Shown one piece after another: positions 1,300 through 55,345 of a DNA stretch of 64,000 nt. Source of the DNA: Patescibacteria group bacterium (GTDB lineage: Bacteria > Patescibacteriota > Patescibacteriia > UBA10025 > JAHIVO01); the NCBI GenBank assembly GCA_018816445.1, contig JAHIVO010000001.1, forward strand, positions 8,354 to 72,353. The letters run 5' to 3'. Each line of letters starts with the position of its first letter. Within the stretch, counting starts at the first letter, position 1. The translations under genes were made by a program, and so were the position numbers. The notes under the pieces were generated by a model. The model did not search any database and had not been told where the DNA came from. It saw only the letters and a list, made by a program, of their open reading frames with translations.

Positions 1300-2208
1300 A
1301 TGAGCAGAGTATTAGTCACAGGCGGAGCTGGATTTATCGGCAGCCATCTGGTAGACCATCTGATAAAAGCTGGCCACCGGGTAATTATTATTGATGACTT
1401 AAGCTCCGGTTCCCGTCAAAATTTAAATAAAAAAGCAAAATTCATAAAACAAAAAGTTCAGCATCAAACTATGCCAGGGATATTCAAGGCCAATAAAGTT
1501 GATTTTGTTTTTCATTTAGCGGCTCAGATAAAATTGCAATTTTCAAAAAAATATCCGGCAGAAGATGCGGAAACTAATATTATCGGCAGCTTAAGGGTAT
1601 TAGATGCGGCTCGGCAGGCAAAAGTAAAAAAATTAATATTTTTCTCCAGCGCTGCTGTTTATAATATCCAAGATAAACCACTTAATAAGGAAACTGATAT
1701 CATCCTTCCTGAAATACCATATGGCATCGCCAAGCATGCTGTTGAGCAGTATATAATCAAATCTGGCTTAAAATATTCAATCCTTAGGCCCTCAAATGTG
1801 TACGGATCCAGGCAGGGAGCTTTTGGCGAAGGGGGCGTAGTAGCCATATTTTGCAGTCAGGCGGCTAAAAATCGAGCCTCGGTAATAAATAATACTGGGC
1901 ATCAAACCCGTGATTTTATTCATGTATCGGATATAGCAGCTGGAGCGTTAAAAACGATAAATATGGCTCATAACCAGGTTATTAACTTAAGTACTGCCAG
2001 AGAAACCACCATAAATGAATTATATGATTTAATATATTCGTTAGTAGCAAAAAAGATTAAGCCAATACGCGGAGTTTATTTAGATGAACAGTATCGAAGT
2101 GCTCTTAACAATAAATTAGCAAAAAAGAGGCTGAATTGGCAGCCTAGGATGTTATTAGCAGAAGGTTTAAAAGAAACATATAACTGGTTTATTAAAAAAT
2201 ATGAGTAG
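1300..2208 (+). CDS. NAD-dependent nucleoside-diphosphate-sugar epimerase (GalE-like UDP-hexose 4-epimerase family)
   Basis: VLVTGGAGFIGSHLVDHL Rossmann motif, 'FHLAAQ', the catalytic YxxxK (YGIAKHA) and a 302-aa length. Confidence 0.7.
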   Translation: MSRVLVTGGAGFIGSHLVDHLIKAGHRVIIIDDLSSGSRQNLNKKAKFIKQKVQHQTMPGIFKANKVDFVFHLAAQIKLQFSKKYPAEDAETNIIGSLRVLDAARQAKVKKLIFFSSAAVYNIQDKPLNKETDIILPEIPYGIAKHAVEQYIIKSGLKYSILRPSNVYGSRQGAFGEGGVVAIFCSQAAKNRASVINNTGHQTRDFIHVSDIAAGALKTINMAHNQVINLSTARETTINELYDLIYSLVAKKIKPIRGVYLDEQYRSALNNKLAKKRLNWQPRMLLAEGLKETYNWFIKKYE

Positions 2209-3529
2209 AGATATTAAAAAAAATAAATTTAAAGTTAAGAGAAAAAAAAGAAAAAGTATGATGATCACGATTGTCGGGATTGGCTATGTTGGCTTGCCCC
2301 TGGCTTGTTTGTGCGGTGAAAAGGGTTATAAGACATTCGGTATTTCTAAGGATAGGAAAAAAATCAATCAAATAAATAATGGCATTTCTCCAATTAAGGG
2401 CGATATTTATTTGGAGAAAATGATTTCAAGAAAGTTCTTTACTGCCACCTCAAGCTATGATTCAATTTCAAAATCTGACATTATAATAATCTGCGTTCCC
2501 ACTCCGGTTGATGAGAGGTATAATCCTGATTTAACGCCAGTTAAGCAATCCTGCAGGAATATTGCCAAACATCTTAAAAAGGGGCAGTTAATAATTATTG
2601 AGTCAACCGTGAATCCTGGTGTTTGCGAAGAAGTGGTTAAACCTTTGCTGGAAGAAGCAACAGGCCTTCAAGCGGGGAAGGATTTTTATCTGGCTCATTG
2701 TCCGGAAAGGATCAATCCTGGCGATCCGCACTGGAATGTGCGTAATATCCCGCGCTGCGTCGGTGCCTTGAGCAGGCAGGGCTTATTAAAATCTTTAAAG
2801 TTTTACCGCCATATATTAGAAGGGGAAGTAAGGCCGATGAAATCCATTAAAGAAGCCGAGGCTACTAAAATTATTGAAAATTCATTCAGAGACATTAATA
2901 TCGCCTTTGTGAATGAATTGGCTAAGTCTTTTGAGGTGTTAGGCATTGATCTGATGGACGTTATTGAGGGTGCCAGTACAAAACCTTTTGCCTTTATGGC
3001 CCATTATCCGTCTTGCGGCGTGGGCGGACATTGCATTCCAGTCGATCCTTATTATTTAATTGAGCGTGCCAAGTTAGCTGGTTTTGACCACCGTTTTTTA
3101 AAGCTAGCGCGTGAGATAAACAATAGTATGCCGTCTTATACGGTTGATCTGCTGATCAAATCTTTAAATGATTTAAAAAAGTCAATTAGAGGCACTAAGG
3201 TCGGTTTACTGGGCATGGCTTATAAAGCCAATGTAGCTGATATGAGGGAAAGTCCGGCCGTTGATATTATGAAGATATTAAAAAAACAAGGAGCTATGGT
3301 TGAAGTTTTTGATCCATATTTGCCTGACCAGTCAACAGTAAAAAATCTGGAAGAGTTATTGAAGAAATCCGAAGCTTTAATCATTGCCACTGATCATAAT
3401 GAATTTAAACAACTATCACTGTCATTATTGAAAAAGAACGGAATTAAAGTCGTTATTGACGGGAAAAACTGTTTAAATAATAAATTGATAAAAAAGTCAA
3501 AAATTATTTATAAAGGCGTCGGCAGATGA
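2201..3529 (+). CDS. Nucleotide-sugar dehydrogenase of the WbpA/WecC/Cap5O family (UDP-GlcNAc or UDP-ManNAc 6-dehydrogenase)
   Basis: IVGIGYVGLPLA dinucleotide fold, 'IIICVPTP', a catalytic Cys context (GGHCIPVDPYY) and a C-terminal UDP-binding domain. The first 19 codons are Lys-rich; the more likely start is the MM at 2258. Confidence 0.75.
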   Translation: MSRDIKKNKFKVKRKKRKSMMITIVGIGYVGLPLACLCGEKGYKTFGISKDRKKINQINNGISPIKGDIYLEKMISRKFFTATSSYDSISKSDIIIICVPTPVDERYNPDLTPVKQSCRNIAKHLKKGQLIIIESTVNPGVCEEVVKPLLEEATGLQAGKDFYLAHCPERINPGDPHWNVRNIPRCVGALSRQGLLKSLKFYRHILEGEVRPMKSIKEAEATKIIENSFRDINIAFVNELAKSFEVLGIDLMDVIEGASTKPFAFMAHYPSCGVGGHCIPVDPYYLIERAKLAGFDHRFLKLAREINNSMPSYTVDLLIKSLNDLKKSIRGTKVGLLGMAYKANVADMRESPAVDIMKILKKQGAMVEVFDPYLPDQSTVKNLEELLKKSEALIIATDHNEFKQLSLSLLKKNGIKVVIDGKNCLNNKLIKKSKIIYKGVGR

Positions 3530-4866
3530 TTAAGATAAAAAAAACAAAAAAAAGCAGTTATAACATCGGCATTATTGGCGTTGGTTGGGTTGGGCTGATT
3601 ACGGCTGCCAGTTTAGCTGATTTGGGGAATAAAGTAAGATGTTTTGACGTTGATTCAAAAAGAATGAATAATCTGCAAAAGGGATCCTGGCTGCCTTTTT
3701 ATGAACCTCATTTAAAACAATTAGTCGATAAAAATTTAAAAGCAGGCAGATTGAGTTTTTACATAAATTTAGAGCATGTTGTTGAAAACAGCCAGGTGAT
3801 ATTTATCTGCGTAGGCACGCCGTCAAGAAAAAATGGCAGTGTTGACTTAAGTTACATTAAGAACGCCTGCCAGGATATTGCTAAGTATACAAATGAGTCT
3901 AAAATCATTGTAATTAAAAGTACTGTTCCTACTGGTACTGCAGAAATAGTTAGTAAAATTTTTAAGAGGTATTATAAAGGCCAGACGGATATTGTGTCAA
4001 ATCCTGAATTTTTACAGGAGGGCAGGGCAGTGGAGTCATTTTTAAAAGCTGATCGGATAGTAATTGGCTATCCTGGCTTATGCAAGCCAGCTACTAAAAA
4101 AATTATGAAAGATATTTATAGTCCATTAAAAGTTTCAATTTTTGAAACAAATAATCGTACCGCAGAAATGTCAAAATATGCAAGTAACGTATTTTTAGCC
4201 ACTGAAATCTCGTTTATTAATAATATTGCCAATTTATGCGATGAAACGGGAGCAGACGTTAAGATTATCTCAGATATTATGAAGGCTGATAAAAGGATTG
4301 GCTATAAAGCTTTTTTAAATGCGGGTGCTGGCTATGGAGGTCTCTGCTTCCCAAAAGACATGAGAGGCTTCATTCGTGCTTATGAAAGAAATGGTTATGA
4401 TCCTACTTTTTTAAAGATGGTTGAAAAAATTAATTTAAGTCAGAGAACTATAATTGTTAAAAAAATAAGAAAAGCACTAGGTAAGTTAAAAGGTAAAACA
4501 ATAGTAATATTGGGCATCTCATTTAAGCCCAATACTGATGATATTCGTGATGCACCATCACTTACTGTGATTGAAAAATTATTGAGTGCCGGTGCCCAAG
4601 TCCGGTTATGTGATCCAGTGGCCTTACACAACGCCAAGGCTGTATTCAATAACAGGGTTACTTATAATTTTGAGACTTATGAGGCTCTAAAAGGCGCCCA
4701 TGCCGCAGTATTAATAACTGAGTGGGATAGGTACAAGAATATAGATTTTATGAGAGCTAGAAAATTAATGAAAAAAAATATAATAATTGATGGACGTAAT
4801 ATTTATGATCCGTTAAAATTAAAAAAAGCTGGTTTTAAATATTATGGCATCGGAAGAAATAATTAA
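3526..4866 (+). CDS. ugd: UDP-glucose 6-dehydrogenase
   Basis: IGIIGVGWVGL, 'FICVGTP', 'NPEFLQEG', 'GAGYGGLCFPKD' (catalytic Cys) and 'FKPNTDDIRDAP' are classic Ugd/UDPGDH blocks. Start overlaps the upstream stop (ATGA). Confidence 0.85.
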   Translation: MIKIKKTKKSSYNIGIIGVGWVGLITAASLADLGNKVRCFDVDSKRMNNLQKGSWLPFYEPHLKQLVDKNLKAGRLSFYINLEHVVENSQVIFICVGTPSRKNGSVDLSYIKNACQDIAKYTNESKIIVIKSTVPTGTAEIVSKIFKRYYKGQTDIVSNPEFLQEGRAVESFLKADRIVIGYPGLCKPATKKIMKDIYSPLKVSIFETNNRTAEMSKYASNVFLATEISFINNIANLCDETGADVKIISDIMKADKRIGYKAFLNAGAGYGGLCFPKDMRGFIRAYERNGYDPTFLKMVEKINLSQRTIIVKKIRKALGKLKGKTIVILGISFKPNTDDIRDAPSLTVIEKLLSAGAQVRLCDPVALHNAKAVFNNRVTYNFETYEALKGAHAAVLITEWDRYKNIDFMRARKLMKKNIIIDGRNIYDPLKLKKAGFKYYGIGRNN

Positions 4867-6920: not shown

Positions 6921-7761
6921 GAAAATTACAACTATCATCCCAATATATAATGGTTTAAAATATCTAAAAATTTGTTTAGATTCTTTAAATCAGCAAACCT
7001 ATAAAAATTTTGAAATTGTATTGGTTGACAATGCCTCTACTGATGGCAGTCCTGATATGATTAAAAAATCATATCCAGGTGTGAAAATCATTTATAATAA
7101 AAAAAATCTTGGTTTTGCCAGAGCCAATAATAAAGGAATTAAATATGCTCTTGAAAATAATAGCGATTATATTGTAATAACTTGTCAGGATGATAGATTT
7201 GAACCAAATTTTCTAGAGCAAGGGATAAAAGTCTTGGAACAAAAAGGTGTTGGCATGTGTACTCCCAAGGTAATTTATGATGAAACAAATCGAATCTGGT
7301 GGGCTGGTGGAAAATTGCTACCACTAAAAGAGTTATTAAAATCTACTTCAATAAAAATTAGTGAACATACAGGCAAGGGAGATGAAGATGTTGGGCAGTA
7401 TAATTCTCCCAGGTTAGTTGATATTCTCACCGGTAATGCGCTGTTTGTTAAAAGAGAGGTGATTGAAAAAGTTGGATATTTTGATGAAAAATATTTTTTG
7501 TATGGTGATGATATTGATTACAGTATTCGCGCAAGAAAAGCTGGATATTCACTGATTTATTTTCCCGATACAACTGTTTATCATATGACGCCCTTGGTCA
7601 GACGGGATAAAAGAACACTAAAGCAGTTAATATTAAAATTTAAAAGGTACCTAACTGGATGGATATTGCTTGCCGCCAAGCATCTTAAGTGGTATGTAAA
7701 AATAATTTGGTTTGTTAAGCTACCAATTACTTTATTATTTACGTTGTTTAAAGATAAATAG
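6907..7761 (+). CDS. GT2 glycosyltransferase
   Basis: 'TIIPIYNGLKYL', 'EIVLVDNASTDGS' and 'DDIDYSIRARKAGY'. Confidence 0.75.
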   Translation: MDQTKKITTIIPIYNGLKYLKICLDSLNQQTYKNFEIVLVDNASTDGSPDMIKKSYPGVKIIYNKKNLGFARANNKGIKYALENNSDYIVITCQDDRFEPNFLEQGIKVLEQKGVGMCTPKVIYDETNRIWWAGGKLLPLKELLKSTSIKISEHTGKGDEDVGQYNSPRLVDILTGNALFVKREVIEKVGYFDEKYFLYGDDIDYSIRARKAGYSLIYFPDTTVYHMTPLVRRDKRTLKQLILKFKRYLTGWILLAAKHLKWYVKIIWFVKLPITLLFTLFKDK

Positions 7762-7768
7762 CTTTCAG

Positions 7769-9004
7769 CTAGTAAAGTTGTTTAAAAAATTTGTTTACTG
7801 TTTTTTTGATATAGCCAATCTGTTCATCGTCCATCCCTGGCCATACCCCGATAAAAAATGTATCAAGCAAAATCTTATCTGAGTTTTTTAGTGAACCAGA
7901 TATTCTATATTTGACATTTTTATAGGCTGGATGACGAATAATATTGCCGGCAAATAGAGGCCTAGTTTGGATATTATGATCTTCTAGGTAAATTGAAATG
8001 TCCCTTCTTGAAAATGGCGCTTTATCTTTTACTGTTAAAGGAAATGAAAACCAGGATGGCTTTGCTTCTTTCTCCCATTTCGGCAAAATAAAGTATTTTT
8101 CAAATTTTTTAAAGTAGTTATATAGTTTAGTAAAATTCTGCCTTCTTTTTTTAACGAAAAAGGGTAATTTTTTTAATTGCTCCAAGCCCATAGCGCATTG
8201 AAATTCAACCGGCTTTAAATTATATCCAATACTGGTATAAGTATAGCGATGGTCATACCCTTTTGGTAGATCCCCGAGTTGAAAATTAAAACGATTTTTG
8301 CATGCACCATGAGGATTTTTTTGGTCCCATTTACAATGACAGGCTCTGCCCCAGTCTCTGAGCGATCTAATTTTTCTTTCTCTTGAATTACTGTTCAAAT
8401 AAACCATACCGCCTTCTCCTATAGTAATGTGGTGCGCAGGGTAAAAACTGCAGGTAGCAACATCACCAAAGCTGCCGGTTTTTTGGTTATTATATGTTGA
8501 GCCTAAAGCATCACAGTTATCTTCAATTAATTTTAAATTATACTTTTTTTTAATTTTCATTATTTTTTTCATATTGCACGGGTTTCCTAAAGTATGAGGT
8601 ATTAACAAGGCTACAGTTTTTTTTGTTATGGCCTTTTCAATTAATTCAGCTTTAATATTATATGTACCAAGATCAACATCAATAAGTACAGGTACTAAAC
8701 CTAATTGCACAATAGGATTGAATGAAGTCGGAAAATTACAAGCCGGAGTGATAATCTCTAATCCTGGTTTAAAGCCAAATCCAGCCACAGCTAGCAGGGT
8801 AGCTGATGAGCCAGAATTAGTAACTATTGCATTTTTTACTCCGATGAATTGAGCAAATTCTTTTTCAAATTTATCCGCTTTTTCGCCAACACCAAACCAG
8901 CCTTTTTTTATTGATTTAATCATGGCATCAACTTCTTTATTGTCATAATATGCACCTGCATATTGCACTTTAGTTTTTCCCGGAATGAATTTTTTTTTGT
9001 TCAT
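7769..9004 (-). CDS. DegT/DnrJ-fold NDP-4-keto-6-deoxyhexose 3-dehydrase, RfbH/DdhC (E1)- or ColD-like
   Basis: 'NSGSSATLLAV' block. His replaces the usual PLP-binding Lys in 'SFYPAHHITIGEGG', the diagnostic E1/ColD signature. A Cys cluster 'RACHCKWDQKNPHGAC' follows, possibly Fe-S. Confidence 0.65.
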   Translation of the reverse strand: MNKKKFIPGKTKVQYAGAYYDNKEVDAMIKSIKKGWFGVGEKADKFEKEFAQFIGVKNAIVTNSGSSATLLAVAGFGFKPGLEIITPACNFPTSFNPIVQLGLVPVLIDVDLGTYNIKAELIEKAITKKTVALLIPHTLGNPCNMKKIMKIKKKYNLKLIEDNCDALGSTYNNQKTGSFGDVATCSFYPAHHITIGEGGMVYLNSNSRERKIRSLRDWGRACHCKWDQKNPHGACKNRFNFQLGDLPKGYDHRYTYTSIGYNLKPVEFQCAMGLEQLKKLPFFVKKRRQNFTKLYNYFKKFEKYFILPKWEKEAKPSWFSFPLTVKDKAPFSRRDISIYLEDHNIQTRPLFAGNIIRHPAYKNVKYRISGSLKNSDKILLDTFFIGVWPGMDDEQIGYIKKTVNKFFKQLY

Positions 9005-9009
9005 ATTTA

Positions 9010-9957
9010 TTAATCACTTTTATATTTTAAATCGTTTTGAATATAATCTTTAAGTGCTACTTGCCATTTTCTCATAAGATCTAGATTAATATCCTGCAAT
9101 TTACCGTTGATGGCTGTTAAGTTTTTTGCTCGTGGGGCTTTTTCCTTAAATTGACTAGAATTGATGGGAATGACCTTAATATTTTTTTTTCTAGCGTATT
9201 CAATGATTTTTTTTGCATATTGATAATAAGTAGCTGAACCATGACCGACTATATTATAAGTTCCGTAGTTTTCTGACATTATTAATTTTAACATGTTGGT
9301 TACGAGATCTTTAACATAGGTTGGCTGGATAAATCTATCATTAATCATTTTTAATTCATTTTCCTGTTCAATTAATTTTAGGATTTTACCGACAAATTTT
9401 TTATCGCGTTTTCTGCCGCCGAATAAAGCACCAATCCTAATCACATAATACTTATTTATTTTATATTTCTTTATTAGTTGTTCACCGAGCAGCTTGGTTT
9501 TTGAATAGTATCCTATTACTTTATTAAGTTTCGGTTGGTCCGTACGATCATCAAATATTTTGCCATCCTTACCATTATATACATAAAAAGTGCTTGGATA
9601 TACTAAGGTAGTGTTGATTTCTTTAACCGCCCGGCAGATATTTTTAACTCCATCTACATTAACATCTTTACATTTAGCTGGATTTTCTTCACACCAGTCC
9701 ACGTTGGTTATGGCTGCTAAATGTATTACAGTATCCGGCTTATATTGTTTAAACTTTTTTAATACTTGTTGATAATTAGTTACATCCATCTCTTCCAAAC
9801 CCAAATCAATATGGTTAATCCAGTGGTAATGGTCATTAAGCTGGTTAATAATTTCCTCACCAATTATTCCTTTTGCTCCGGTAATTAAATATGTCTGTTG
9901 CTTATCATTTTTTTGTTTTATCATAAAAAGAAAGATCAATATTATGCTCATCCCCAA
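9010..9957 (-). CDS. RmlD-family NDP-sugar 4-ketoreductase with a ~90-aa C-terminal extension
   Basis: 'VIHLAAITNVDWCEENP', 'VYPSTFYVYNG' and 'YSKTKLLGE' mirror RmlD blocks (VxxAA-T-VD…STDYVFDG…YGxTKLAGE). Confidence 0.55.
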   Translation of the reverse strand: MGMSIILIFLFMIKQKNDKQQTYLITGAKGIIGEEIINQLNDHYHWINHIDLGLEEMDVTNYQQVLKKFKQYKPDTVIHLAAITNVDWCEENPAKCKDVNVDGVKNICRAVKEINTTLVYPSTFYVYNGKDGKIFDDRTDQPKLNKVIGYYSKTKLLGEQLIKKYKINKYYVIRIGALFGGRKRDKKFVGKILKLIEQENELKMINDRFIQPTYVKDLVTNMLKLIMSENYGTYNIVGHGSATYYQYAKKIIEYARKKNIKVIPINSSQFKEKAPRAKNLTAINGKLQDINLDLMRKWQVALKDYIQNDLKYKSD

Positions 9958-10759
9958 GCTCGTTGATTTTATGCTTGTTCTTTTGGTAATATCTTAATGT
10001 GAAAAGCTTGATATGGATCATAAATTCATACCAAGCCATCATGCAGGCAATATAAAAACCATGCCAGCCATCTAGTAATCCTTTTTTGATAAAGTAGCGT
10101 CCAAAAAATTGTTTTGACATGTTTACACACATTTTTATAAAAATTATCCAATAACTTCTTGAACTTATTTTATTTATTCTTTCATACGAATCTAGGTTGG
10201 TATATTTTTTAAATCCCTCCAAAGTATCATTAACAGTAATATGTGAAAAATGAAGATGGGGAGATTTTAGTGTACCAATTTTGTATTTTTGATTATTATG
10301 TGGTATTAGTTTTTCATGAACAAGTATCTCCCCGTCCATGTGGAGTATTTTTTTATTGTATAATCTAGTATGGTATTGCGGATACCAATCACCGTGTTTA
10401 ATCCAGCGACCATAAAAAAAATCTAGGCACGGTACGTTATAGCCTACAAATTCAGCCATAGAATCTATATTTTTTAGCTCTTCTTTGAGATCATCTGGTA
10501 TAAACTCATCTATATCGAGCTGGAAAATCCAGTCATATTTAGCCTTTGAATTAGCTAAGTTTCTTTGTTTTGAATAACCCGGCCAGCAATTCTTATAAAT
10601 TCTGACATTTTTATACTTTTTCGCCAGCTCAACTGTCTTGTCAGTACTATAAGAATCAATTATAATAATATCATCGGAAATATCATAAATATTCTCAAGA
10701 CAACGTGAGATATTCAGTTCTTCGTTATAGGTAATTATACAGATTGAAAATTTTATCAT
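9905..10759 (-). CDS. GT2 glycosyltransferase
   Basis: 'FSICIITYNEELNI', 'IIIIDSYSTDKT' and 'LDIDEF'. Confidence 0.7.
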   Translation of the reverse strand: MIKFSICIITYNEELNISRCLENIYDISDDIIIIDSYSTDKTVELAKKYKNVRIYKNCWPGYSKQRNLANSKAKYDWIFQLDIDEFIPDDLKEELKNIDSMAEFVGYNVPCLDFFYGRWIKHGDWYPQYHTRLYNKKILHMDGEILVHEKLIPHNNQKYKIGTLKSPHLHFSHITVNDTLEGFKKYTNLDSYERINKISSRSYWIIFIKMCVNMSKQFFGRYFIKKGLLDGWHGFYIACMMAWYEFMIHIKLFTLRYYQKNKHKINELGDEHNIDLSFYDKTKK

Positions 10760-10892
10760 ATTGTTATTATCGAATATCCATTAATAGTGTGTAACTATAA
10801 AAAAGTATATCAGATTTTAAACTCATTGGAAACCTCGAGAGTTAGCACGGAAAAACGTACCAAAAAGAGACTCTTATACTTATCTCGCAAAA

Positions 10893-11861
10893 ATGAAAAA
10901 AACAACAAATATAAATAATTGTCCGATATGCAATAGTACATTAATTAATCGGGTAATTATTGCATATGATAAAACGATGCGAAGTCTTAGCTCATTATAT
11001 CCTTCAAATTTATTTTTTAAGGATTATAAAAAAATCTCGCTTCAAATCTATCAATGCCAAAGGTGTAGCTTTGCATTCTTGAATCCAAGATTATCAAGAG
11101 AGGGATTGAATCAATTATATGGGAATCTTTATAAAACAGTTTATTATGATGACAAAAGGCGTCATAAAGAATTCCAATATCAAGATTATTTTAAAAAACT
11201 AAAACATTTAAAAAAAGACGGCCCCGGGAAACTATTAGATTTTGGTTGTAATACAGGTGTATTCTTAAAGATTGCCCAAGATAATTGCTGGGACGTCATG
11301 GGTATAGAATTATCTTATCAAGCATCTCAGATAGCTAAAAAAAGGTTGGGAAATGATAGGATCATTACTGGTGCTATTGATGAATTAAAAAATCTAGACA
11401 TACAATTCGATATAATTTCGTTTTTAAACGTTCTCGAACATCTGCCAGATCCTAATTTATATATAAAAATTGCATCCAGAAAGTTATCTCCCGGCGGATT
11501 ATTATTTATCGTTGTTCCAAATTACGACAGTATCAGAAGAATTTTAATCGGTGAAAATTGGTCTCTCATTCTCCTAGAGCATATTAATTATTTCACTCGG
11601 GATTCCGTTGCGTATCTGGCATCTAATAATGGTCTAATTCTGAAACAAGGAGGTCCCATCGATTATGAAATATTTAACAGAGGATTTTTTGAAAAAATAA
11701 AAAAGATGTTTCGGAAAAATGAGGGCTCAAGTTATTCGTTTAGTTACGGACGCGATGCCTTAATAAAATTAGCATTCTTAGCATTAATAACTGATTTTGC
11801 GGGCCTGGCCATCAACCGCGGCGATTTTATTTATTATGTGATGGCTAAGAAATCCCTATAG
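10893..11861 (+). CDS. SAM-dependent methyltransferase with an N-terminal Cys4 zinc ribbon (NDP-sugar C-/O-methyltransferase-like)
   Basis: CPICNS…CQRCSF zinc ribbon, then 'LLDFGCNTGVFL' motif I and 'FDIISFLNVLEHLPDP'. Confidence 0.6.
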   Translation: MKKTTNINNCPICNSTLINRVIIAYDKTMRSLSSLYPSNLFFKDYKKISLQIYQCQRCSFAFLNPRLSREGLNQLYGNLYKTVYYDDKRRHKEFQYQDYFKKLKHLKKDGPGKLLDFGCNTGVFLKIAQDNCWDVMGIELSYQASQIAKKRLGNDRIITGAIDELKNLDIQFDIISFLNVLEHLPDPNLYIKIASRKLSPGGLLFIVVPNYDSIRRILIGENWSLILLEHINYFTRDSVAYLASNNGLILKQGGPIDYEIFNRGFFEKIKKMFRKNEGSSYSFSYGRDALIKLAFLALITDFAGLAINRGDFIYYVMAKKSL

Positions 11862-12600: not shown

Positions 12601-14469
12601 TTATTGAAATTCATAAATGAAATATTTTAGTTCATTTATTTTAGGAATAGCTGGAGGAAATTGAGTATCATCGTAAGTAACAAGTAGCCTAGTGAAATTT
12701 AATGAAAAATCATCAATTTTGTTTAGATTATCATTATTAAATAAATAATTAATATTGTCCTCGGAGTCATTATCAACAGAGGAAATTACATATATGTTTT
12801 TATTTGATGATTTATTTATATATTCTTTTATAGCTGAAATATCAATATAGGGAGTTTTTTCTTGATGATAAGCTGGCCAAATGATACCGTCTAAGCCATA
12901 GTGGTATTTTAATATGGCAGTGAATCTCCCAATTGTGTCATAATAATTTGTTGGCATAATTACAATATCGTTTGGAGTAAATTTATTTGCAATATTTGAC
13001 AATTGTTTGCCCTGGTTACGATTTTCTGAATAGAAAAAAATTTTAGATAAGAATATAATATTTAATAATAAAATAATTATTACTAAACTTATCGGTATTA
13101 TATTAATTTTATTGAATTTTTTTAATGCTTGGAATTCAATTCTTTTTATATCTACAATAACAATAGAAGCTAATAACATTACGTAAGGGATAAAGATAGC
13201 CCAATATCTTCTAAGGGCCCAGGGTTGATCCCTGGCGATTAAAGGATCGTAAAGATAAAGAAAACTTGGCAAAACAATTATAGTTATTAAAAAAATAATA
13301 AATTTATATTGTCTTTTGTAGAGACCAATTAAAGAAAGTATGATATAGGGAAGAATTAGATAGAAAAATAAAATTGAGAATACATAATTTATATCACCAA
13401 GTTTATCAACCTCTTTGATCCTATATGTACTTGTACTAATAAAATTTTCTTGTATAAAAACATTATCTGCCATAGTAGGAATGATTTTCGTAGAGAAAAC
13501 TACCAATGGGCGTACAACAAATCTAGCTACATGCATAATTTGAGCGTAAGAGGGGGGCAGAAAAAATACTATATATCCGATAAAAATACAAATCAAAAAT
13601 AAAATAACTAGCAGAATATTTTTATTGATTTTTTGATTGGGCCATTTATTTTTTTGATAATTATTTATTATAATTATTACTATCAAAAAGGTAAAAAGAT
13701 GGAAAATTCCCTCAACCCTTACAAAAAGTGTGACTAATATTGGAATTAAACTAGATAATACAAACGAAAGATTTTTATTATAATATCCTTTTATTAGTAA
13801 ATATATGCCAAACCAAAAGAGAAAAAGCATAATATTTTCGGAAAGTGTTTGACGGCTGAAATATATTGTTAAGTAATGGGAAGCAAAAAAGAGTACGAAT
13901 AAAATTCCCGCCCATTTATTTTTTATTGATTTTCCCAAAAAATAAAAGATACAAAGGGACAAAAATAGAAGTAAACTATTTGCCAAAAAGAGCCCTAATA
14001 GTCCGCCCCACGTATAAAATAATGCTAAATATACTGGATATCCAATAATTCTACTTAATACCAATTGATTACTGAAGGTTGATTTAATTGATCCACTATA
14101 GCTAAAGCTTGGATCAAGATTAATTTTTCCCTCGTGAGATAAAATTACCGCATTAGCTACATAACCACCATAATCCCTGGTAGCACCAAGGTTTTCATAA
14201 TAAAAAAGACCATTAACAATTGAAAATATCAGTAATAATAATATTAGAGCAACTTCAAATTTTATAACTTTATTATTACTTTTTTTACGATACCTTTTGA
14301 AATGATACCAGATTAAAAATAATATAAATATTCCAATTATTATTGGCGCGATCCATTGTGCAAAGATTTGAAAAACTTCAAAAAAAGAGCTTATTATGCC
14401 GGCGATTATCAGTCCAATTACAAAAAATGATATTTTTACAATATTTTTTTCAATAATATTTTCATTCAT
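12601..14469 (-). CDS. GT-C-like polytopic membrane glycosyltransferase (PMT/ArnT-like); paralog of 46458..48122
   Basis: About 12 or more predicted TM helices over 622 aa. The N-terminal half resembles 46458..48122 (the FYFLGKSIKNK / FYLLIKEVFNKK region). Confidence 0.45.
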   Translation of the reverse strand: MNENIIEKNIVKISFFVIGLIIAGIISSFFEVFQIFAQWIAPIIIGIFILFLIWYHFKRYRKKSNNKVIKFEVALILLLLIFSIVNGLFYYENLGATRDYGGYVANAVILSHEGKINLDPSFSYSGSIKSTFSNQLVLSRIIGYPVYLALFYTWGGLLGLFLANSLLLFLSLCIFYFLGKSIKNKWAGILFVLFFASHYLTIYFSRQTLSENIMLFLFWFGIYLLIKGYYNKNLSFVLSSLIPILVTLFVRVEGIFHLFTFLIVIIIINNYQKNKWPNQKINKNILLVILFLICIFIGYIVFFLPPSYAQIMHVARFVVRPLVVFSTKIIPTMADNVFIQENFISTSTYRIKEVDKLGDINYVFSILFFYLILPYIILSLIGLYKRQYKFIIFLITIIVLPSFLYLYDPLIARDQPWALRRYWAIFIPYVMLLASIVIVDIKRIEFQALKKFNKINIIPISLVIIILLLNIIFLSKIFFYSENRNQGKQLSNIANKFTPNDIVIMPTNYYDTIGRFTAILKYHYGLDGIIWPAYHQEKTPYIDISAIKEYINKSSNKNIYVISSVDNDSEDNINYLFNNDNLNKIDDFSLNFTRLLVTYDDTQFPPAIPKINELKYFIYEFQ

Positions 14470-14474
14470 TAGTA

Positions 14475-15980
14475 TTATACCTTCTCAATTATTGCTTCTG
14501 AAATCGGATGACCATCAAAAATATTAGATTGTTCAATATTCATTAGCTTGAATATTGTAGGCGCAATGTCTATAATATTGTTCTGCTTTAATTCCATATT
14601 TGTTTTAATATCCGGTCCGTAGGAAATGAATATTCCGTCAAGGCTGTGATATTGAAATTTTCCTTTAACAAAAGCAGGACCCATAATACTTTTTATCAGA
14701 TATTTTGAAGAATATAATATTATATCCGGCCCATTTCTCACCTGTCTGCCAGAATATATTTTTTGTGAATCTGCTACAACGTCAAATACACGATCCTTAT
14801 TGTCAGGTCCTTTTATCTTGGTGAGTTTATCAATAATCTCTTGTTTAATTTTTTTATATTCATTATCATTGTCAATAATTCCATTTGAAAATCTGCCTTT
14901 ACGGTTTAGATAGATTAAGTTTGATAAGCTATATACAGATGAATTAAGTGTATCAATGCCAATATCCTGGTCTACATATATTGGTAATATTTTTTTAATT
15001 TTGTCATATATTTTTTTCGCAAACTTGAATATAGTGGGATATTTCCACATAAAGGAAGTCAGACCAGACAGATTTAAATTTAATGCTTTTTTTGCAGATT
15101 TATCTCTGCTTTCTGAAATTTTACCGAAATCAATATGCTTTTTATTTTTTGATTTAAATTGCAGATAATTTTCTTTAGCCAGCCATTCATTCAAAAAGAA
15201 TACTCCTTTCAAATCAGAAAAACCGTGATCAGACATAACTAGTAAGTTAGTATTTGCCGGCAAGTTATCCGCGAACCACCCAAGGTAGCTATCAATATCT
15301 TGGTAAATATTTATTACTGACTGATTCTTTTTAAGATCTTGATTAATTAAATCATGATATTTTGTATGTTGTATCCAGTCTGTACCGCTAAAAAGGACGA
15401 AGAAAAAATCCCATGGTTTATTTTTGAATAGTTTTTGTGCACATTTAAACCTTGTCTGTTCAATGTCACGTATCTCATGAATATGCTCTTTCAGTTTACG
15501 TTCTTTTTTTCCTTCTGGAGCTAATTTATATTTGGTGAACTCAGGGATTTCATCAATTAATTTTTTAGGAAAAACAAAGTCATCTCCGCGCGTGAGCAAA
15601 CTTGTTATAACTATTTCAGATAATTTTGGGGGAAAAGATACAGGTAAATTAACTAAAATACATTTTTTTCCAATTTCATCCAACTGTTCGTAAAAGGTTT
15701 TTACTTTTATTGAATTACTTGAAATAGGTGCATAGTCGTCAAGATCATTCTCTGGCGTCACGAATTCAAAACAACCGTGCTGACCAGGATTTGCACCCGT
15801 TGCAAATGACGTCCAGGCAGGTGCAGTAACTGGGGGTAGGGTAGTTCTAAGGGAGCTGAATGATCCATTTTCCTTAATTTTTTTTATATTGGGCAAGAAA
15901 CCCCCGTCAATTAGTTTATTGATCAATTGCCAATTTACTCCGTCTAGGCCTATGACTATTACTTTTTTACTATTATTCAT
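14475..15980 (-). CDS. Alkaline-phosphatase-superfamily protein (type I phosphodiesterase / nucleotide pyrophosphatase, PF01663-like)
   Basis: 'VIVIGLDGVNW' and 'LPPVTAPAWTSFATGANPGQHG', the metal-ligand and catalytic Thr/Ser region of NPP/AP-family enzymes; 'SDHGF' later. Confidence 0.6.
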   Translation of the reverse strand: MNNSKKVIVIGLDGVNWQLINKLIDGGFLPNIKKIKENGSFSSLRTTLPPVTAPAWTSFATGANPGQHGCFEFVTPENDLDDYAPISSNSIKVKTFYEQLDEIGKKCILVNLPVSFPPKLSEIVITSLLTRGDDFVFPKKLIDEIPEFTKYKLAPEGKKERKLKEHIHEIRDIEQTRFKCAQKLFKNKPWDFFFVLFSGTDWIQHTKYHDLINQDLKKNQSVINIYQDIDSYLGWFADNLPANTNLLVMSDHGFSDLKGVFFLNEWLAKENYLQFKSKNKKHIDFGKISESRDKSAKKALNLNLSGLTSFMWKYPTIFKFAKKIYDKIKKILPIYVDQDIGIDTLNSSVYSLSNLIYLNRKGRFSNGIIDNDNEYKKIKQEIIDKLTKIKGPDNKDRVFDVVADSQKIYSGRQVRNGPDIILYSSKYLIKSIMGPAFVKGKFQYHSLDGIFISYGPDIKTNMELKQNNIIDIAPTIFKLMNIEQSNIFDGHPISEAIIEKV

Positions 15981-19586: not shown

Positions 19587-19623
19587 ATTTTTTTAATTTT
19601 GATATTTAATATTTCAATTAGTA

Positions 19624-34887: not shown

Positions 34888-34964
34888 GATTGATTATTTA
34901 AAAATTCTTAAAAATAAGTTTTCGTTTTGATAAACTTTTTATGTCCAAGGCGTTGTGAAATAAA

Positions 34965-35621: not shown

Positions 35622-35759
35622 ATATATTCTTTCTTTTTATACTCTCATCAGTTCTCTATTAAAATTGATGCGCGTATGTATTGCCGTACATTGATTTTAT
35701 TAGCAGCGCTTAGTTTAAAAATAGTTTATCATTGTATCAAATGACGAGATTTTAAGTTT

Positions 35760-35939
35760 TTAACAGAGTGTATGAACTGTTCGGAGTCTTCTGTCTATTG
35801 GAGCCGGTATAGCCGATTTAATGTTAACGTTGACATTAAATTTCTCTTTAAATGCTTGCAGAATTTCAAGCTAAGTTACGTTGCTTAAAAATATATGGAA
35901 AAGCCCATTCTGGGGATAATTATTTCTGTTGCTAATAAT
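35760..35939 (-). pseudogene. Decayed 3'-terminal fragment (~60 codons, internal TAG) of a paralog of the RmlD-like reductase gene 34000..34887
   Basis: The reverse-complement translation 'IISNRNNYPQNGLFHIFLSNVT*LEILQAFKEKFNVNVNIKSAIPAPIDRRLRTVHTLC*' aligns with the C-terminus 'IITERNAFPKNGLFHIFSNDVSKYEMITAFKDKYKVNVKIESTRPNPVDRRLSTIHSLC' of 34000..34887. Confidence 0.6.
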
Positions 35940-35944
35940 CTTGT

Positions 35945-36931: not shown

Positions 36932-36935
36932 ATAA

Positions 36936-43627: not shown

Positions 43628-43735
43628 TGTTATCCATATTATTTATTTATTCTAAATTTAGGTTCAAAATTGCTTAATTTATCAAAAAAGGTTGGTCATA
43701 TTATACCAACCTTGTTTCTTATTCGCAAGTAAGTA

Positions 43736-44956: not shown

Positions 44957-44957
44957 G

Positions 44958-51461: not shown

Positions 51462-51902
51462 ATGTCCATAATTGAAGAACAATCAAAAATTGTTAAACAT
51501 AAGTTGATTTGGGAAATTATTAAATATCGGAGAACTAATAAGGGCAATAGATGGCTTTCCCATTTTTGGCCTAATCAAAATGAGTGTAAGAAATTTTTTA
51601 CACCCACTTTTGCCTATCTAAACTATATCGGACCTAGTGATCAGGCTGGAGGTCATTATCATAAAAATAAAAAAGAATATTTTTGTCCTTTAGGCGATTT
51701 TAAATTGTTGATCGGCGATGTTAAGAACAAAAAGACAGAAGTTATCAAGATGTCTCTGGGAACTAAAAAATATTATTCTTTTTATTACATTCCTCCAATG
51801 GTGCCCCATGCTGTTAAAAATTGTACTGATAAGTTTCAGGCTTTAGTTGTGCTGACTAATAAAAAAGATATTTACGGAAAAACATACGATTTTAAATTTT
51901 AA
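51462..51902 (+). CDS. Cupin-fold protein (possible NDP-sugar ketoisomerase/epimerase, FdtA/WxcM-like)
   Basis: Cupin motif 1 G(x)5HxH(x)4E(x)6G is present in 'GPSDQAGGHYHKNKKEYFCPLG'; motif 2 in 'PPMVPHAVKN'. Confidence 0.4.
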   Translation: MSIIEEQSKIVKHKLIWEIIKYRRTNKGNRWLSHFWPNQNECKKFFTPTFAYLNYIGPSDQAGGHYHKNKKEYFCPLGDFKLLIGDVKNKKTEVIKMSLGTKKYYSFYYIPPMVPHAVKNCTDKFQALVVLTNKKDIYGKTYDFKF

Positions 51903-52059: not shown

Positions 52060-53202
52060 ATGAAGTTATTAGTCACAGGCGGAGCAGGATTTATTGGCTC
52101 AAATTTTATTCACTATTGGCTAAAAGAGCATCCAGATGATTCAATTGTTAATCTGGACTGTTTAACTTATGCTGGTAATCCGTATACAGATAAAGATAGG
52201 AATAAAAAGCCAGCAAATTTAAAGGACTTAGAAAATAATCAGAATTATAAGTTTGAAAATTTTGATATTACTTGTCCGATAAAATATTCTCAGGCAGAAA
52301 CTTCTGATGAATATGGCCGTTTTGATAGCAAGGAATTTAATCGATTGAAGGATTTTATCAAGAATTCCGATACCGTTGTTCATTTTGCCGCTGAATCACA
52401 TGTTGATAAATCAGTTTTAAATGCTGGACCTGATAGACCAGATGCATACGATTTTGTTTTAACAAATACTTGGGGTACTCACATTATGCTTGAAGCCGCA
52501 GTTAAAGCTTGGAAAGATAGTAATTTTAATAATAAAAGATTCCATCATATTTCTACCGATGAAGTTTTTGGTGCTTTAGCATTGGATGACCCTAACAAAT
52601 TTAATGAACAAACGGCATACGATCCTCGCAGCCCATATTCTGCTTCAAAAGCTGGAGCTGATCATTTGGTTCGCGCTTATAATACTAGTTATGATTTGCC
52701 GACTACTATATCAAACACTTCAAATAACTATGGTCCTTATATGTATCCGGAAAAATTACTACCATTAGCAATAACAAATTTATTAGAAAATAAAAAAGTT
52801 CCAATTTATGGAGACGGAAAATATGTACGTGACTGGTTGTATGTAGATGACCATTGCCAAGCAATTGATTTAATTATAAAAAAAGGTAAAGTAGGTGATT
52901 CTTATTGCATTGGTGGTTTAACTGATGATATAAATAACTTGGAACTAATTAAAAAAGTTTTAAAAATTTTAAATAAAGATGAAAACTCTTTGGAGTACGT
53001 TAAAGATCGGCCTGGCCACGACCGTCGTTATGCGGTTAATTGGGATAAAGCAAAAAAAGAGCTAGGTTATCGGCCGAGGTATGATTTGGATACTTATTTA
53101 GAAAAAATGATTATTTGGTATCAAAAAAATGAAGCTTGGTGGAAACCTATTAAAGAGGGTGAGTTTAAAGAATATTATAAACGTCAATATATTGAAAGAT
53201 GA
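52060..53202 (+). CDS. rfbB: dTDP-glucose 4,6-dehydratase
   Basis: 'LLVTGGAGFIGSNFIHYWL', 'HFAAESHVDKS', 'YSASKAGADHLVRAY' (YxxxK) and 'RPGHDRRYAV'; ~25 aa longer than E. coli RmlB. Confidence 0.9.
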   Translation: MKLLVTGGAGFIGSNFIHYWLKEHPDDSIVNLDCLTYAGNPYTDKDRNKKPANLKDLENNQNYKFENFDITCPIKYSQAETSDEYGRFDSKEFNRLKDFIKNSDTVVHFAAESHVDKSVLNAGPDRPDAYDFVLTNTWGTHIMLEAAVKAWKDSNFNNKRFHHISTDEVFGALALDDPNKFNEQTAYDPRSPYSASKAGADHLVRAYNTSYDLPTTISNTSNNYGPYMYPEKLLPLAITNLLENKKVPIYGDGKYVRDWLYVDDHCQAIDLIIKKGKVGDSYCIGGLTDDINNLELIKKVLKILNKDENSLEYVKDRPGHDRRYAVNWDKAKKELGYRPRYDLDTYLEKMIIWYQKNEAWWKPIKEGEFKEYYKRQYIER

Positions 53203-53218
53203 ATTTAAGAATAATAAA

Positions 53219-54070
53219 ATGAAGGTACTAATTACAGGTGCATTAGGCATGCTGGGCCAGCAATTAGCTAAAGTTTATAAAGATCAGGATCCTATTCTTT
53301 GGGATAGGGAAGTGATAGATATTACTGATAAGGATAAGGTATTAACACAGATTTCTAAGATTAAGCCTGATATTGTCTTAAATACAGCAGCTTATAATGA
53401 TGTAGACGGAGCTGAAAATAACGAGGCTCTAGCTATGGAAATTAACGGTCATGCCATTGGACACCTGGCTAAGGCGGTTAGTACTGCAGGAGGCATTCTC
53501 GTGCATTACAGCACGGACTACGTATTTAAGGGAGATAGTGTTGAAGGCTATAAAGAAGATGGTCAACCAGATCCGCAGTCTGCTTATGCGCGTTCAAAAT
53601 ATCTAGGCGAACAGGAATTAGTTGATAATATCCAAAATTATTATTTAATCAGATTATCCAGATTATTTGGGCGCCCAGCAAAGAGTAAAAGCGGAAAAAA
53701 AAGCTTTGTTGAGATAATACTTGATTTAGCTAATAACCAAGATGAAGTTAATGTCATTGATGAGGAAGTATCCTCGCCAACATATTCTGTAGATTTGGCA
53801 TTAGCCACCAAAGCAATTATTGATCAAAAAAAATCTTTTGGAATTTATCATATTTCCAATAACGGCTCCTGCACCTGGTTTGAATTTGCAAAGGAAATTT
53901 TTTCTAATTATAATATAAAAGTAAAGCTAAATCCAGTACCCGCGGATTTTTTTTCCAGACCCGCCTTACGCCCTAAATATTCAGTTTTATTGAATAATAA
54001 GACTGAACCATTGCGCAGCTGGCAATATGCACTTAAAGATTATATGTCTGTAAAAAATCATGAAATTTAA
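53219..54070 (+). CDS. rfbD: dTDP-4-dehydrorhamnose reductase (start taken at MKVLITG; the ORF opens at 53129, overlapping rfbB)
   Basis: 'VLITGALGMLGQQL', 'VLNTAAYNDVDGAENNEA', 'HYSTDYVFKG' and 'YARSKYLGE'. Confidence 0.85.
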   Translation: MKVLITGALGMLGQQLAKVYKDQDPILWDREVIDITDKDKVLTQISKIKPDIVLNTAAYNDVDGAENNEALAMEINGHAIGHLAKAVSTAGGILVHYSTDYVFKGDSVEGYKEDGQPDPQSAYARSKYLGEQELVDNIQNYYLIRLSRLFGRPAKSKSGKKSFVEIILDLANNQDEVNVIDEEVSSPTYSVDLALATKAIIDQKKSFGIYHISNNGSCTWFEFAKEIFSNYNIKVKLNPVPADFFSRPALRPKYSVLLNNKTEPLRSWQYALKDYMSVKNHEI

Positions 54071-54605
54071 GGAAACAAAATTTAATGACGCCTGGTTGAT
54101 TGAGCCGGATGTTTATAAAGATACCAGGGGATTTTTTATGGAAACTTTTTCCAAAGAATGGTTTGAGGAAAAAGGTATTAAAGTTAATTTTGTTCAGGAT
54201 AATCATTCTAAGTCGGTAAAGTCTGGAGTATTACGTGGACTGCATTTTCAGCTACCGCCGCATAATCAAGCAAAGTTAGTGCGAGTCTGTAATGGTGCAG
54301 TGTATGACGTGGTAGTTGATTTAAGAAAAGATTCTGAAACTTTTGGTCAGTGGGAGGGTTTTGAATTGACCGCAAATAATCATTTGATGTTTTTTATACC
54401 TCGCGGATTTGCCCATGGTTATTGCACCTTGCAACCAAATACTGAGTTTTTGTATAAGATTGATAATTTATATTCTCCGGAGTATGATACTGGCATAATT
54501 TGGAATGATCCGATTTTAAACATTAAATGGCCAATATCAAATCCAATTATTTCAGATAAGGATGCTCAATTACAGTCATTTAAACAATTCAAATCTCCAT
54601 TCTAA
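54060..54605 (+). CDS. rfbC: dTDP-4-dehydrorhamnose 3,5-epimerase
   Basis: 'DTRGFFMETF', 'RGLHFQ' and 'KLVRVCNGAVYDVVVDLRKDSETFGQW'. Confidence 0.9.
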   Translation: MKFKETKFNDAWLIEPDVYKDTRGFFMETFSKEWFEEKGIKVNFVQDNHSKSVKSGVLRGLHFQLPPHNQAKLVRVCNGAVYDVVVDLRKDSETFGQWEGFELTANNHLMFFIPRGFAHGYCTLQPNTEFLYKIDNLYSPEYDTGIIWNDPILNIKWPISNPIISDKDAQLQSFKQFKSPF

Positions 54606-54622: not shown

Positions 54623-55345
54623 ATGAAAGGGATAATATTAGCCGGCGGTAAAGCCACTAGGTTAAGACCATTAACAAAAATTACCAGCAAACAGCTTCTT
54701 CCTATTTATAACAAGCCGATGATTTTTTATCCGTTAAATACATTATTAACAGCCGGAATAAAAGAGATATTAATTATTGTTGCTCCTGACTACGCTGGTC
54801 ATTTTTTGCATTTACTGGGTTCTGGAAAGGATTTTGGCGCAAAATTTACATATGAAATCCAGCAATCACCGCGCGGGCTGGCTGATGCCTTCATTATTGG
54901 TGAGGATTTCATGGATGAAGATAGCGTAACCATGGTGCTTGGTGATAATATTTTTGAGGATGATTTATCGGAGGAAATAAAAAGTTTTAAAAGCGGGGGG
55001 AGGATATTTGCAAAAAAAGTAGCCGATCCAGAAAGATCTGGCGTGGTAAAATTTGATGCCAATAATAAAGCTATAAAAATCGTTGAAAAACCAAAAGAGT
55101 GGATCAGTGATTATGCCATTCCTGGATTGTACGTTTATGATAAGCGTGTTTGCCAATTTGCCAAGGAAGTCAAACCATCTGACAGGGGTGAAATTGAAAT
55201 AACAGACTTGCATAACAGTTATCTGGAAATTGGAGAACTGGATGTCAGGCAGATAAAAGGTGCCTGGTTTGATGCTGGTACGTTTGATTCACTGCTTGAG
55301 GCAAATGTATTTGTGTCAAAACACAAAAGATTAAGTAAAATTTAA
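54623..55345 (+). CDS. rfbA: Glucose-1-phosphate thymidylyltransferase (short 240-aa form without the C-terminal regulatory extension)
   Basis: 'MKGIILAGGKATRLRPLTKITSKQLLPIYNKPMIFYPL', 'LGDNIF' and 'ERSGVV…EKP'. Confidence 0.85.
   Translation: MKGIILAGGKATRLRPLTKITSKQLLPIYNKPMIFYPLNTLLTAGIKEILIIVAPDYAGHFLHLLGSGKDFGAKFTYEIQQSPRGLADAFIIGEDFMDEDSVTMVLGDNIFEDDLSEEIKSFKSGGRIFAKKVADPERSGVVKFDANNKAIKIVEKPKEWISDYAIPGLYVYDKRVCQFAKEVKPSDRGEIEITDLHNSYLEIGELDVRQIKGAWFDAGTFDSLLEANVFVSKHKRLSKI

Follow-up and report, generated by a model that had tools for sequence, protein, structure and literature searches.

The window analysed here is a stretch of 64,000 nucleotides from contig JAHIVO010000001.1 of a Patescibacteria group bacterium, with a guanine-cytosine (GC) content of ~30%. 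On its minus strand three genes follow each other in the order family-2 glycosyltransferase (GT2), RmlD-family reductase and rfbH, the last of which encodes a predicted 3-dehydrase of nucleotide sugars (Table 1). The 3' end of the GT2 gene was read to overlap the start of the reductase gene, the stop of the reductase and the start of rfbH are separated by 5 nt, and the group is flanked by genes on the opposite strand. Because of this tight packing between genes on the other strand, the three genes form one unit, a three-gene operon. Promoter and terminator scans of positions 7400-11200 stayed at chance level. The unit is interpreted, with a probability of about 0.55, as part of a route to a 3,6-dideoxyhexose linked to deoxythymidine diphosphate (dTDP), which would operate without a dedicated E3 reductase.

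Table 1. Features of the three-gene unit and of the dTDP-sugar genes in the window.
Feature	Position	Strand	Length	Basis
RfbH/E1-family 3-dehydrase for nucleoside diphosphate (NDP)-4-keto-6-deoxyhexoses, predicted pyridoxamine phosphate (PMP)- and [2Fe-2S]-type	7769..9004	(-)	411 aa	NCBIfam NF011936, PDB 3bcx
C222-x-C224-x10-C235 motif, three of four putative [2Fe-2S] ligands	8300..8341	(-)		alignment to E1 C251/C253/C261
His191 codon, catalytic His in place of the Lys that binds pyridoxal phosphate (PLP)	8432..8434	(-)		alignment to E1 His220
Cys164, fourth putative [2Fe-2S] ligand	8513..8515	(-)		alignment to E1 C193
RmlD-family NAD(P)H-dependent reductase paralogue, putative 4-ketoreductase of a 3,6-dideoxy-4-keto sugar	9010..9924	(-)	304 aa	ATG start at 9924
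GT2, first gene of the unit, candidate transferase for the product sugar	9905..10759	(-)		Pfam Glycos_transf_2 3e-20
Small cupin, borderline FdtA/WxcM-like, directly upstream of rmlB, possible 5-epimerase of a 3-deoxy intermediate (weak lead)	51462..51902	(+)		Pfam FdtA 22.4 bits, cutoff 23
rmlB, dTDP-glucose 4,6-dehydratase, candidate substrate supplier	52060..53202	(+)		TIGR01181 403 bits, cutoff 365; 41% identity to Salmonella RfbB
Bona fide rmlD, dTDP-4-dehydrorhamnose reductase	53129..54070	(+)		TIGR01214 246 bits, cutoff 224
rmlC, dTDP-4-dehydrorhamnose 3,5-epimerase	54060..54605	(+)		Pfam dTDP_sugar_isom 8e-73; 52% identity to Salmonella RfbC
Short RmlA-type glucose-1-phosphate thymidylyltransferase	54623..55345	(+)	240 aa	TIGR01207 299 bits, below cutoff 361; 51% identity to Salmonella RfbA

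The open reading frame (ORF) of the 3-dehydrase scored 542.5 bits (E 6e-163) against the NCBIfam RfbH model NF011936 and passed its whole-protein cutoff of 423, whereas each of the aminotransferase models reached at most 206 bits and remained under its own cutoff. Pfam DegT_DnrJ_EryC1 was matched at 1.7e-93. The top solved structure was PDB 3bcx (E=7e-119, collinear over residues 3-407), which is E1 of Yersinia pseudotuberculosis, the CDP-6-deoxy-L-threo-D-glycero-4-hexulose 3-dehydrase (CDP, cytidine diphosphate). In the PDB search the protein scored 400 bits to E1 and 187 bits to ColD, the 3-dehydratase of guanosine diphosphate (GDP)-4-keto-6-deoxymannose. This difference, together with four cluster cysteines that ColD lacks, indicates that the predicted 3-dehydrase is of the E1/RfbH type and not of the ColD type, and as judged from the sequence its place in the E1 family is nearly certain. 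The first-pass annotation had assigned it to the 3-dehydrases in which His replaces the PLP-binding Lys, which is borne out by the model score, the E1 match and the residue alignment. The choice between E1 and ColD, which that annotation had left to an alignment with both, came out in favor of E1/RfbH, with the four cluster cysteines present. Taken as a gene alone, it is an ordinary, routine member of the RfbH family that has already been annotated: an identical protein has the GenBank entry 'lipopolysaccharide biosynthesis protein RfbH [Patescibacteria group bacterium]' (GCA_018813575.1). It is also encoded on an ENA metagenome contig of 157,685 bp, and the window is therefore part of a genome of the candidate phyla radiation.

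The segment SFYPAHHITIGEGG comprises residues 186-199 of RfbH (window 8408-8449), and its first His is His191. In the alignment, His191 coincided with His220 of E1 (3bcx), with the Lys engineered at this site in the H220K structure of E1 (3bb8) and, in the DegT aminotransferase encoded elsewhere in the window (41964-43055), with the Lys in 'SFFPAKNLG'. Both parts of the initial observation, His in the 3-dehydrase and Lys in the aminotransferase, were thus confirmed, and residues 181-200 of RfbH contain no Lys that could serve as a nearby Schiff base. Cys164 is located in 'DNCDALG' and Cys222, Cys224 and Cys235 in CHCKWDQKNPHGAC. By alignment they correspond to Cys193 and to Cys251, Cys253 and Cys261 of E1, presumably its [2Fe-2S] ligands, the numbers of which reportedly stem from work by Agnihotri and colleagues in 2004. 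The earlier suggestion that the C-x-C-x10-C cluster and an upstream Cys might bind an Fe-S cluster agrees with the alignment for all four residues. The Cys-bearing insert is not present in the window aminotransferase, ColD has no cysteines in that region, and the four cysteines are conserved across the RfbH family. E1 and SpnQ have been described to share a four-cysteine [2Fe-2S] motif, which is not present in ColD, and a His that replaces the catalytic Lys (PMC8987622).

The spacing of these cysteines was determined for the 120 best RfbH homologs, of which 93 could be scored. The x10 spacing was present in 73 of the 93 and the Yersinia-type x7 spacing, which also occurs in the Salmonella and Streptomyces proteins, in 7, while 13 homologs had an x12 variant with an extra Cys. 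Since x10 is the majority form, the spacing is not peculiar to this locus, and it was dropped as a distinguishing feature. A subclade with five cysteines (C-x-C-x2-C-x9-C, 'CxCKxCxV...') was also observed (P0003-P0011, P0046, P0077, P0096, P0106, P0113 and P0115); many of its members are without the N-terminal ~25 residues, and the rml-embedded enzyme of locus L013, described below, belongs to it.

The reductase had initially been described as extended. Its ORF (9010-9957) amounts to 315 aa when counted from a TTG codon inside the upstream gene, whereas the NCBI version has 304 aa and the ENA version 313 aa. Over its whole length the protein is collinear with RmlDs of known structure (286-292 aa). 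The apparent extension is an artefact of the start codon of the ORF, and the length is ordinary for an RmlD. Pfam RmlD_sub_bind (PF04321) covered residues 24-308 of the 315-aa ORF with 206 bits (6e-61), and the eight top PDB matches were dTDP-4-dehydrorhamnose reductases or orthologues named as such by their depositors. With RmlD the protein shares the full-length RmlD_sub_bind fold and the GxxGxxG and S/T-Y-K motifs, here G16xxG19xxG22, S111/T112 and Y140xxxK144, which are invariant in its subfamily. Its identity is 27-35% to characterised RmlDs, 27-32% to Salmonella RfbD and the window RmlD, and 32% to the latter. In contrast to RmlD, it stays under the cutoff of the rmlD model TIGR01214 (189.6 bits versus 224.05), is a second copy next to a bona fide rmlD, and is coupled to rfbH and not to rmlB, rmlC and rmlA. 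The subfamily is small, with about two dozen proteins at 43-59% identity among the 5.8 billion searched. It is quite probable that the reductase acts as the 4-ketoreductase of the pathway, and the presence of its subfamily in rml operons (L013, L044, L045, L055 and L011) suggests a dTDP-linked 4-keto compound as its putative substrate.

Relative loci were annotated with verified reference proteins. The pairing of the 3-dehydrase with an RmlD-like reductase, as given in the first-pass annotation, is real and recurs in these relatives. In L013 the gene order is rmlA (459 bits), rmlC (242), reductase, rfbH (520) and rmlB (435), where all four named genes pass the NCBIfam cutoffs. In L045, rmlA, rmlC and the reductase are followed by rfbH, of which 35 N-terminal residues are encoded before the contig ends, and in both L044 and L055 rmlC is followed by the reductase and the contig end. 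In L011 the C-terminal part of rmlB precedes a 55% identical reductase and rfbH (562 bits). An FdtA-like cupin is located between reductase and rfbH in L010 and L066, the latter being the closest relative seen (reductase 61% identical, 53 matches among 66 residues at the N-terminus of RfbH). The Elusimicrobia loci L016 and L047 have the order radical S-adenosylmethionine (SAM) gene, reductase, rfbH and GT2, whereas in L009 a more distant RmlD-like gene is followed by a methyltransferase gene and rfbH, adjoining a diverging rmlB-cupin pair. The clusters of the relatives have the architecture of a CDP cluster, with rmlA and rmlB in place of rfbF and rfbG and an RmlD-type reductase in place of the abequose-synthase (abe) type.

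CDP-type loci of cultured bacteria were used for calibration, starting from 66 annotated loci that the window RfbH retrieved from plasmid records by tblastn. In all five non-actinomycete cultured loci (Desulfobaculum, Qipengyuania, Methylovirgula, Azospirillum and Sulfitobacter), rfbF and rfbG were located directly beside rfbH, with 42-74% identity to the Salmonella proteins. An abequose-synthase-type reductase accompanied rfbH in four of the five, and no adjacent reductase was identified in Desulfobaculum. The CDP-cluster reductases of Qipengyuania, Azospirillum, Methylovirgula and Sulfitobacter and the abequose synthase of Salmonella are mutually 25-32% identical, whereas the window reductase showed ~20% identity to them or nothing detectable. 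No E3 gene was present within 7 kb of rfbH in the five cultured loci (L115-L119). An adjacent E3 was only seen in the enterobacterial (Salmonella) locus, and none occurred within 7-10 kb of rfbH in the non-enterobacterial loci examined, so that the missing E3 is not peculiar to the window but a common condition among them. On pSA3239 of Streptomyces lavendulae, 'rfbH' stands after rfbB and before an NDP-hexose 2,3-dehydratase gene, which is the SpnQ arrangement. As a separate observation, split transketolase-like genes, of the thiamine pyrophosphate (TPP) type, follow rfbH on the Methylovirgula and Desulfobaculum plasmids (L117:8292-10045 and L115:8268-10066) and are also present on the L013 contig (8581-9784), reminiscent of branched-chain yersiniose-type sugar synthesis.

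The Pfam and NCBIfam scans took in most window ORFs of at least 110 aa, and the gene lists took in 10 kb past each window end; the inspected DNA amounts to ~84 kb of the 157-kb contig, which belongs to an incomplete genome. Salmonella queries were taken from the annotated rfb cluster (order rfbB-D-A-C-E3-rfbF-rfbG-rfbH-abe) and used in tblastn against the window and ~110 related loci. By scans and tblastn, neither rfbF (DdhA) nor rfbG (DdhB) nor E3 (Fer2/FAD/NAD) was found in the window and the 10 kb on each side, as the first-pass annotation had stated for the neighborhood; the flanks carry housekeeping and pilus genes. In the window and the ~110 loci, the E3 query had no match, the RfbF query had a credible match only in L008, and the RfbG query had none at orthologue level. 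No ferredoxin, flavodoxin or rubredoxin signatures were detected in the window ORFs by a regular-expression scan, and no Gmd was detected in the window by the Pfam and NCBIfam scans. Neither an NDP-hexose 2,3-dehydratase (tblastn with the S. lavendulae protein) nor a 3-ketoreductase was found in the window or the loci of the relatives. The window contains a complete rml set, in which RmlA covers model positions 1-238 of 286 and is without the C-terminal part of classical RmlA. In tblastn, the small cupin encoded upstream of rmlB was 32% identical (E=1e-7) to the L009 cupin beside rmlB and 27% identical to the L066 cupin.

As carrier, dTDP is rated at somewhat better than even odds. It is favored because the partner reductase is of the RmlD family, unlike the CDP-cluster reductases, because the reductase-rfbH pair is located inside rml operons of relatives, and because rfbF and rfbG, found beside rfbH in every one of the five cultured loci, were not detected in the window or its flanks with the same queries. 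In addition, the complete rml set and a second, divergent RmlD are what a branch of the rhamnose pathway would need. The initial guess had been a substrate linked to either dTDP or uridine diphosphate (UDP); the dTDP part is strengthened by the comparative context, short of proof, and the UDP part gains no support.

By homology to E1, an NDP-4-keto-6-deoxyhexose would be joined to PMP through a Schiff base at its 4-keto group, after which His191 would abstract the C4' proton and the 3-OH would be expelled. The 3,4-ene adduct would then be reduced in two one-electron steps via a [2Fe-2S] cluster on Cys164, Cys222, Cys224 and Cys235, corresponding to the mechanism of E1 and SpnQ as reviewed in PMC8987622. 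The gene context points to dTDP-4-keto-6-deoxy-D-glucose, supplied by the RmlA and RmlB of the window, as the likely substrate. Its deoxygenated form may be 5-epimerised by RmlC or the small cupin and reduced at C4 by the RmlD paralogue, which would yield a dTDP-3,6-dideoxy-L-hexose. This sugar, of the ascarylose/colitose type, would amount to a '3-deoxy-rhamnose', and the GT2 of the unit may pass it to a surface glycan. Since no 2,3-dehydratase or 3-ketoreductase was found, the 2-OH would be kept, and a 3,6-dideoxy sugar is expected rather than a 2,3,6-trideoxy sugar. Since no dedicated E3 is encoded nearby, a general ferredoxin or flavodoxin system is the probable electron source, as for SpnQ, whose use of general reductases is a precedent for the missing E3 (PMC8987622). 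The broader proposal, in which an E1-type Fe-S/PMP 3-dehydrase was added to the rhamnose pathway (RmlA/RmlB, RfbH, cupin or RmlC, and the RmlD paralogue) to form dTDP-3,6-dideoxy-L-hexose without a dedicated E3 in several uncultivated lineages, is given an even chance, and its product would be a hitherto undescribed nucleotide sugar; among the lineages concerned are Patescibacteria, a clade with an Omnitrophota protein, and Elusimicrobia.

Compared with known systems, the window enzyme resembles E1 (AscC/DdhC/RfbH) of Yersinia and Salmonella in fold, length class, catalytic His and the four cluster cysteines, with 45-46% identity, and differs from it by the x10 instead of x7 spacing and by ~22 fewer N-terminal residues. 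In contrast to the E1 systems, the window has neither adjacent rfbF and rfbG nor E3 (DdhD/RfbI), and the partner is RmlD-type and not abequose/paratose-synthase-type. The actinomycete dTDP-4-keto-2,6-dideoxyglucose 3-dehydrases of the SpnQ type, such as that on pSA3239, share the E1-type His and four cysteines, the absence of a dedicated E3 and the link to dTDP-glucose, at 45.8% identity, but they belong to natural-product clusters with an NDP-hexose 2,3-dehydratase and 3-ketoreductase and not to a surface-glycan cluster. ColD likewise has His for the PLP Lys and deoxygenates C3 of a 4-keto-6-deoxy sugar, but it needs no reductase and falls outside the RfbH family with 100% bootstrap. The pathway described for the CDP-ascarylose branch of Y. 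pseudotuberculosis O:5a (AscE 5-epimerase, AscF 4-reductase) also leads through 5-epimerisation and then 4-reduction to an L-3,6-dideoxyhexose, whereas the carrier here would be dTDP and not CDP (PMC5399914).

Several findings weigh against a dTDP-linked route. The rml genes of the window are 43 kb away from the reductase-rfbH pair, and they are linked to it by analogy with relatives of only 47-58% identity. Salmonella RfbH of the CDP type (45.3%) and Streptomyces RfbH of the dTDP type (45.8%) are equally close to the window RfbH; thus neither the RfbH model nor overall similarity settles the carrier, which is indicated by the neighbors. A neighbor-joining (NJ) tree of RfbH proteins of known context, with 100 bootstraps and ColD as outgroup, supported the grouping of the window protein with P0002 and the whole family at 100% each, but every node above the window-P0002 pair had at most 22%. 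Due to this low support in the deeper nodes, neither an 'rml-context' clade nor a carrier can be assigned to the window RfbH from the tree. In five Elusimicrobia loci, homologs of the reductase (43-49% identity) adjoin dnaE, SAICAR synthase or GT2 genes, and no rfbH was within reach; the idea that the reductase subfamily is dedicated to rfbH was dropped. The setting of rfbH also differs between relatives. In the Patescibacteria locus L004 (JGI 3300037810 Ga0376277_0003002) the gene of a 59% identical RfbH has a GDP-mannose 4,6-dehydratase gene on either side (572 and 372 bits), and in L007 and L008 Gmd is found ~6-9 kb from rfbH. L006:1-21245 (ENA ERZ27297473 k141_3608230) has the gene of a 414-aa RfbH downstream of a truncated RmlD-like gene, in the company of several radical-SAM genes and of genes with phage marks (Gp80, Tail_P2_I), and may represent a phage or prophage with deoxysugar genes; a scan of viral contigs with RfbH yielded distant DegT relatives only. 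Finally, rfbF, rfbG or E3 could lie elsewhere in the genome, and the inspected DNA did not reveal the electron donor that the predicted 3-dehydrase would use. Taken by itself, the region L004:6972-15994 also has an Fcl/ColC-like gene (460 bits) close to that of its RfbH, which carries the four cysteines. This arrangement gives the impression of a GDP pathway of the colitose type in which ColD is replaced by an Fe-S enzyme of the E1 type.

In the canonical CDP route, RfbF and RfbG encoded elsewhere would make CDP-4-keto-6-deoxy-D-glucose and the neighboring reductase would finish a CDP-3,6-dideoxyhexose. This is unlikely, but it has to be reckoned with: the protein passes a curated model that was built around the CDP enzyme, has 45% identity to Salmonella RfbH, stems from a genome of which at most ~84 kb was inspected, and has a relative in the Patescibacteria locus L008 with an RfbF-like gene 9 kb from rfbH. 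However, Streptomyces dTDP enzymes of the SpnQ type receive their name from this model as well, so that passing it does not fix the carrier, and neither the rfbF-rfbG neighborhood nor the abequose-synthase-type companion of the cultured CDP loci is present in the window. A carrier other than CDP or dTDP is quite improbable. In this case the enzyme would deoxygenate a 4-keto-6-deoxy sugar bound to GDP or UDP, such as that formed by the FnlA/PseB-like dehydratase (35945-36931), which is suggested by the genes around the L004 RfbH, including the Fcl-like gene, and by the UDP-N-acetylglucosamine (GlcNAc) 4,6-dehydratase-type gene in the window itself. The window lacks Gmd, the FnlA-like gene is grouped with partners of its own, a 2-epimerase and a CapF/RmlD-like reductase, and the RmlD-family partner of rfbH points to dTDP; moreover, we know of no 3-dehydrase that acts on a UDP-N-acetylhexosamine.

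Reductive deoxygenation might also not be completed, if the protein were a hydrolytic dehydratase like ColD or a 4-aminotransferase like SpnQ without its reductase. The window ORFs, which contain no E3, ferredoxin or flavodoxin signature, are in line with this, and SpnQ shows aminotransferase activity in the absence of a reductase, but E1 and ColD had no transferase activity under the SpnQ conditions (PMC8987622). As the four cluster cysteines are kept here and family-wide, which argues for electron transfer, and the translationally coupled upstream gene encodes a putative 4-ketoreductase that needs a 4-keto product, this explanation is very improbable. For an ordinary DegT-family sugar aminotransferase, to which the Pfam DegT_DnrJ_EryC1 match would point, the probability is close to nil; it was ruled out by the His at the Schiff-base Lys position with no Lys nearby, the E1-specific Cys insert and the scores of 542 versus at most 206 bits.

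3,6-Dideoxyhexoses are rare, strongly antigenic sugars, and their biosynthesis is known on two carriers only, CDP (E1/E3) and GDP (ColD). SpnQ is the one dTDP-linked relative and acts on 2,6-dideoxy substrates. Three substrate classes of 3-dehydratases are listed in a review of nucleotide-sugar dehydratases: CDP-4-keto-6-deoxyglucose (CDP-4k6d-Glc), GDP-4-keto-6-deoxymannose (GDP-4k6d-Man) and dTDP-4-keto-2,6-dideoxyglucose (PMC8987622). If correct, the use of rhamnose enzymes to form a 3,6-dideoxyhexose on dTDP would add a fourth class and show how an E1 enzyme shifts between nucleotide-sugar pathways through swaps of partner genes. The rml-embedded module of rfbH and RmlD paralogue looks like an undescribed variant; a full-text literature search for dTDP-ascarylose, 3-deoxy-L-rhamnose and related names gave no match in the collection searched, which does not prove novelty. 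The ultra-small Patescibacteria would then bear such sugars on their surface, which is relevant to host attachment. The gain is incremental, as the enzyme family, the chemistry and operation independent of E3 all have precedent, and the automatic name 'RfbH' is no guide to the carrier nucleotide.

Other sugar genes were observed in the window. At 34000-38027, the FnlA/PseB-like UDP-GlcNAc 4,6-dehydratase, a UDP-GlcNAc 2-epimerase and a partial RmlD-like reductase are found together, a set that resembles a pathway of the L-N-acetylfucosamine/L-N-acetylrhamnosamine (L-FucNAc/L-RhaNAc) type and forms a third deoxysugar route in the window. The regions 41964-46010 and 2201-4866 encode a WbpB/WbpE/WbpD-like trio (GFO/IDH/MocA oxidoreductase, DegT aminotransferase and hexapeptide acetyltransferase), an alternative GlmU (TIGR03991, 424 bits) and two UDP-sugar 6-dehydrogenases. 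Such a set is typical for the formation of 2,3-diacetamido-2,3-dideoxy(uronic) sugars. A CysN-like GTPase of the EF-Tu family and a CysD-like PAPS_reduct protein are encoded beside two genes of the type I phosphodiesterase/sulfatase fold within the glycan cluster (18345-21193 and 14475-15980), which hints that this Patescibacteria genome provides for the activation of sulfate and for surface glycans that are sulfated. Four ORFs of 511-622 aa without a Pfam match (12601-14469, 21620-23155, 23169-24719 and 48187-49728) are located among the glycosyltransferase genes. The first of them looks like a multi-pass membrane protein when its sequence is read, a PMT_2/STT3-like gene (46458-48122) adjoins the set, and the four may be uncharacterised glycan polymerases or transferases.

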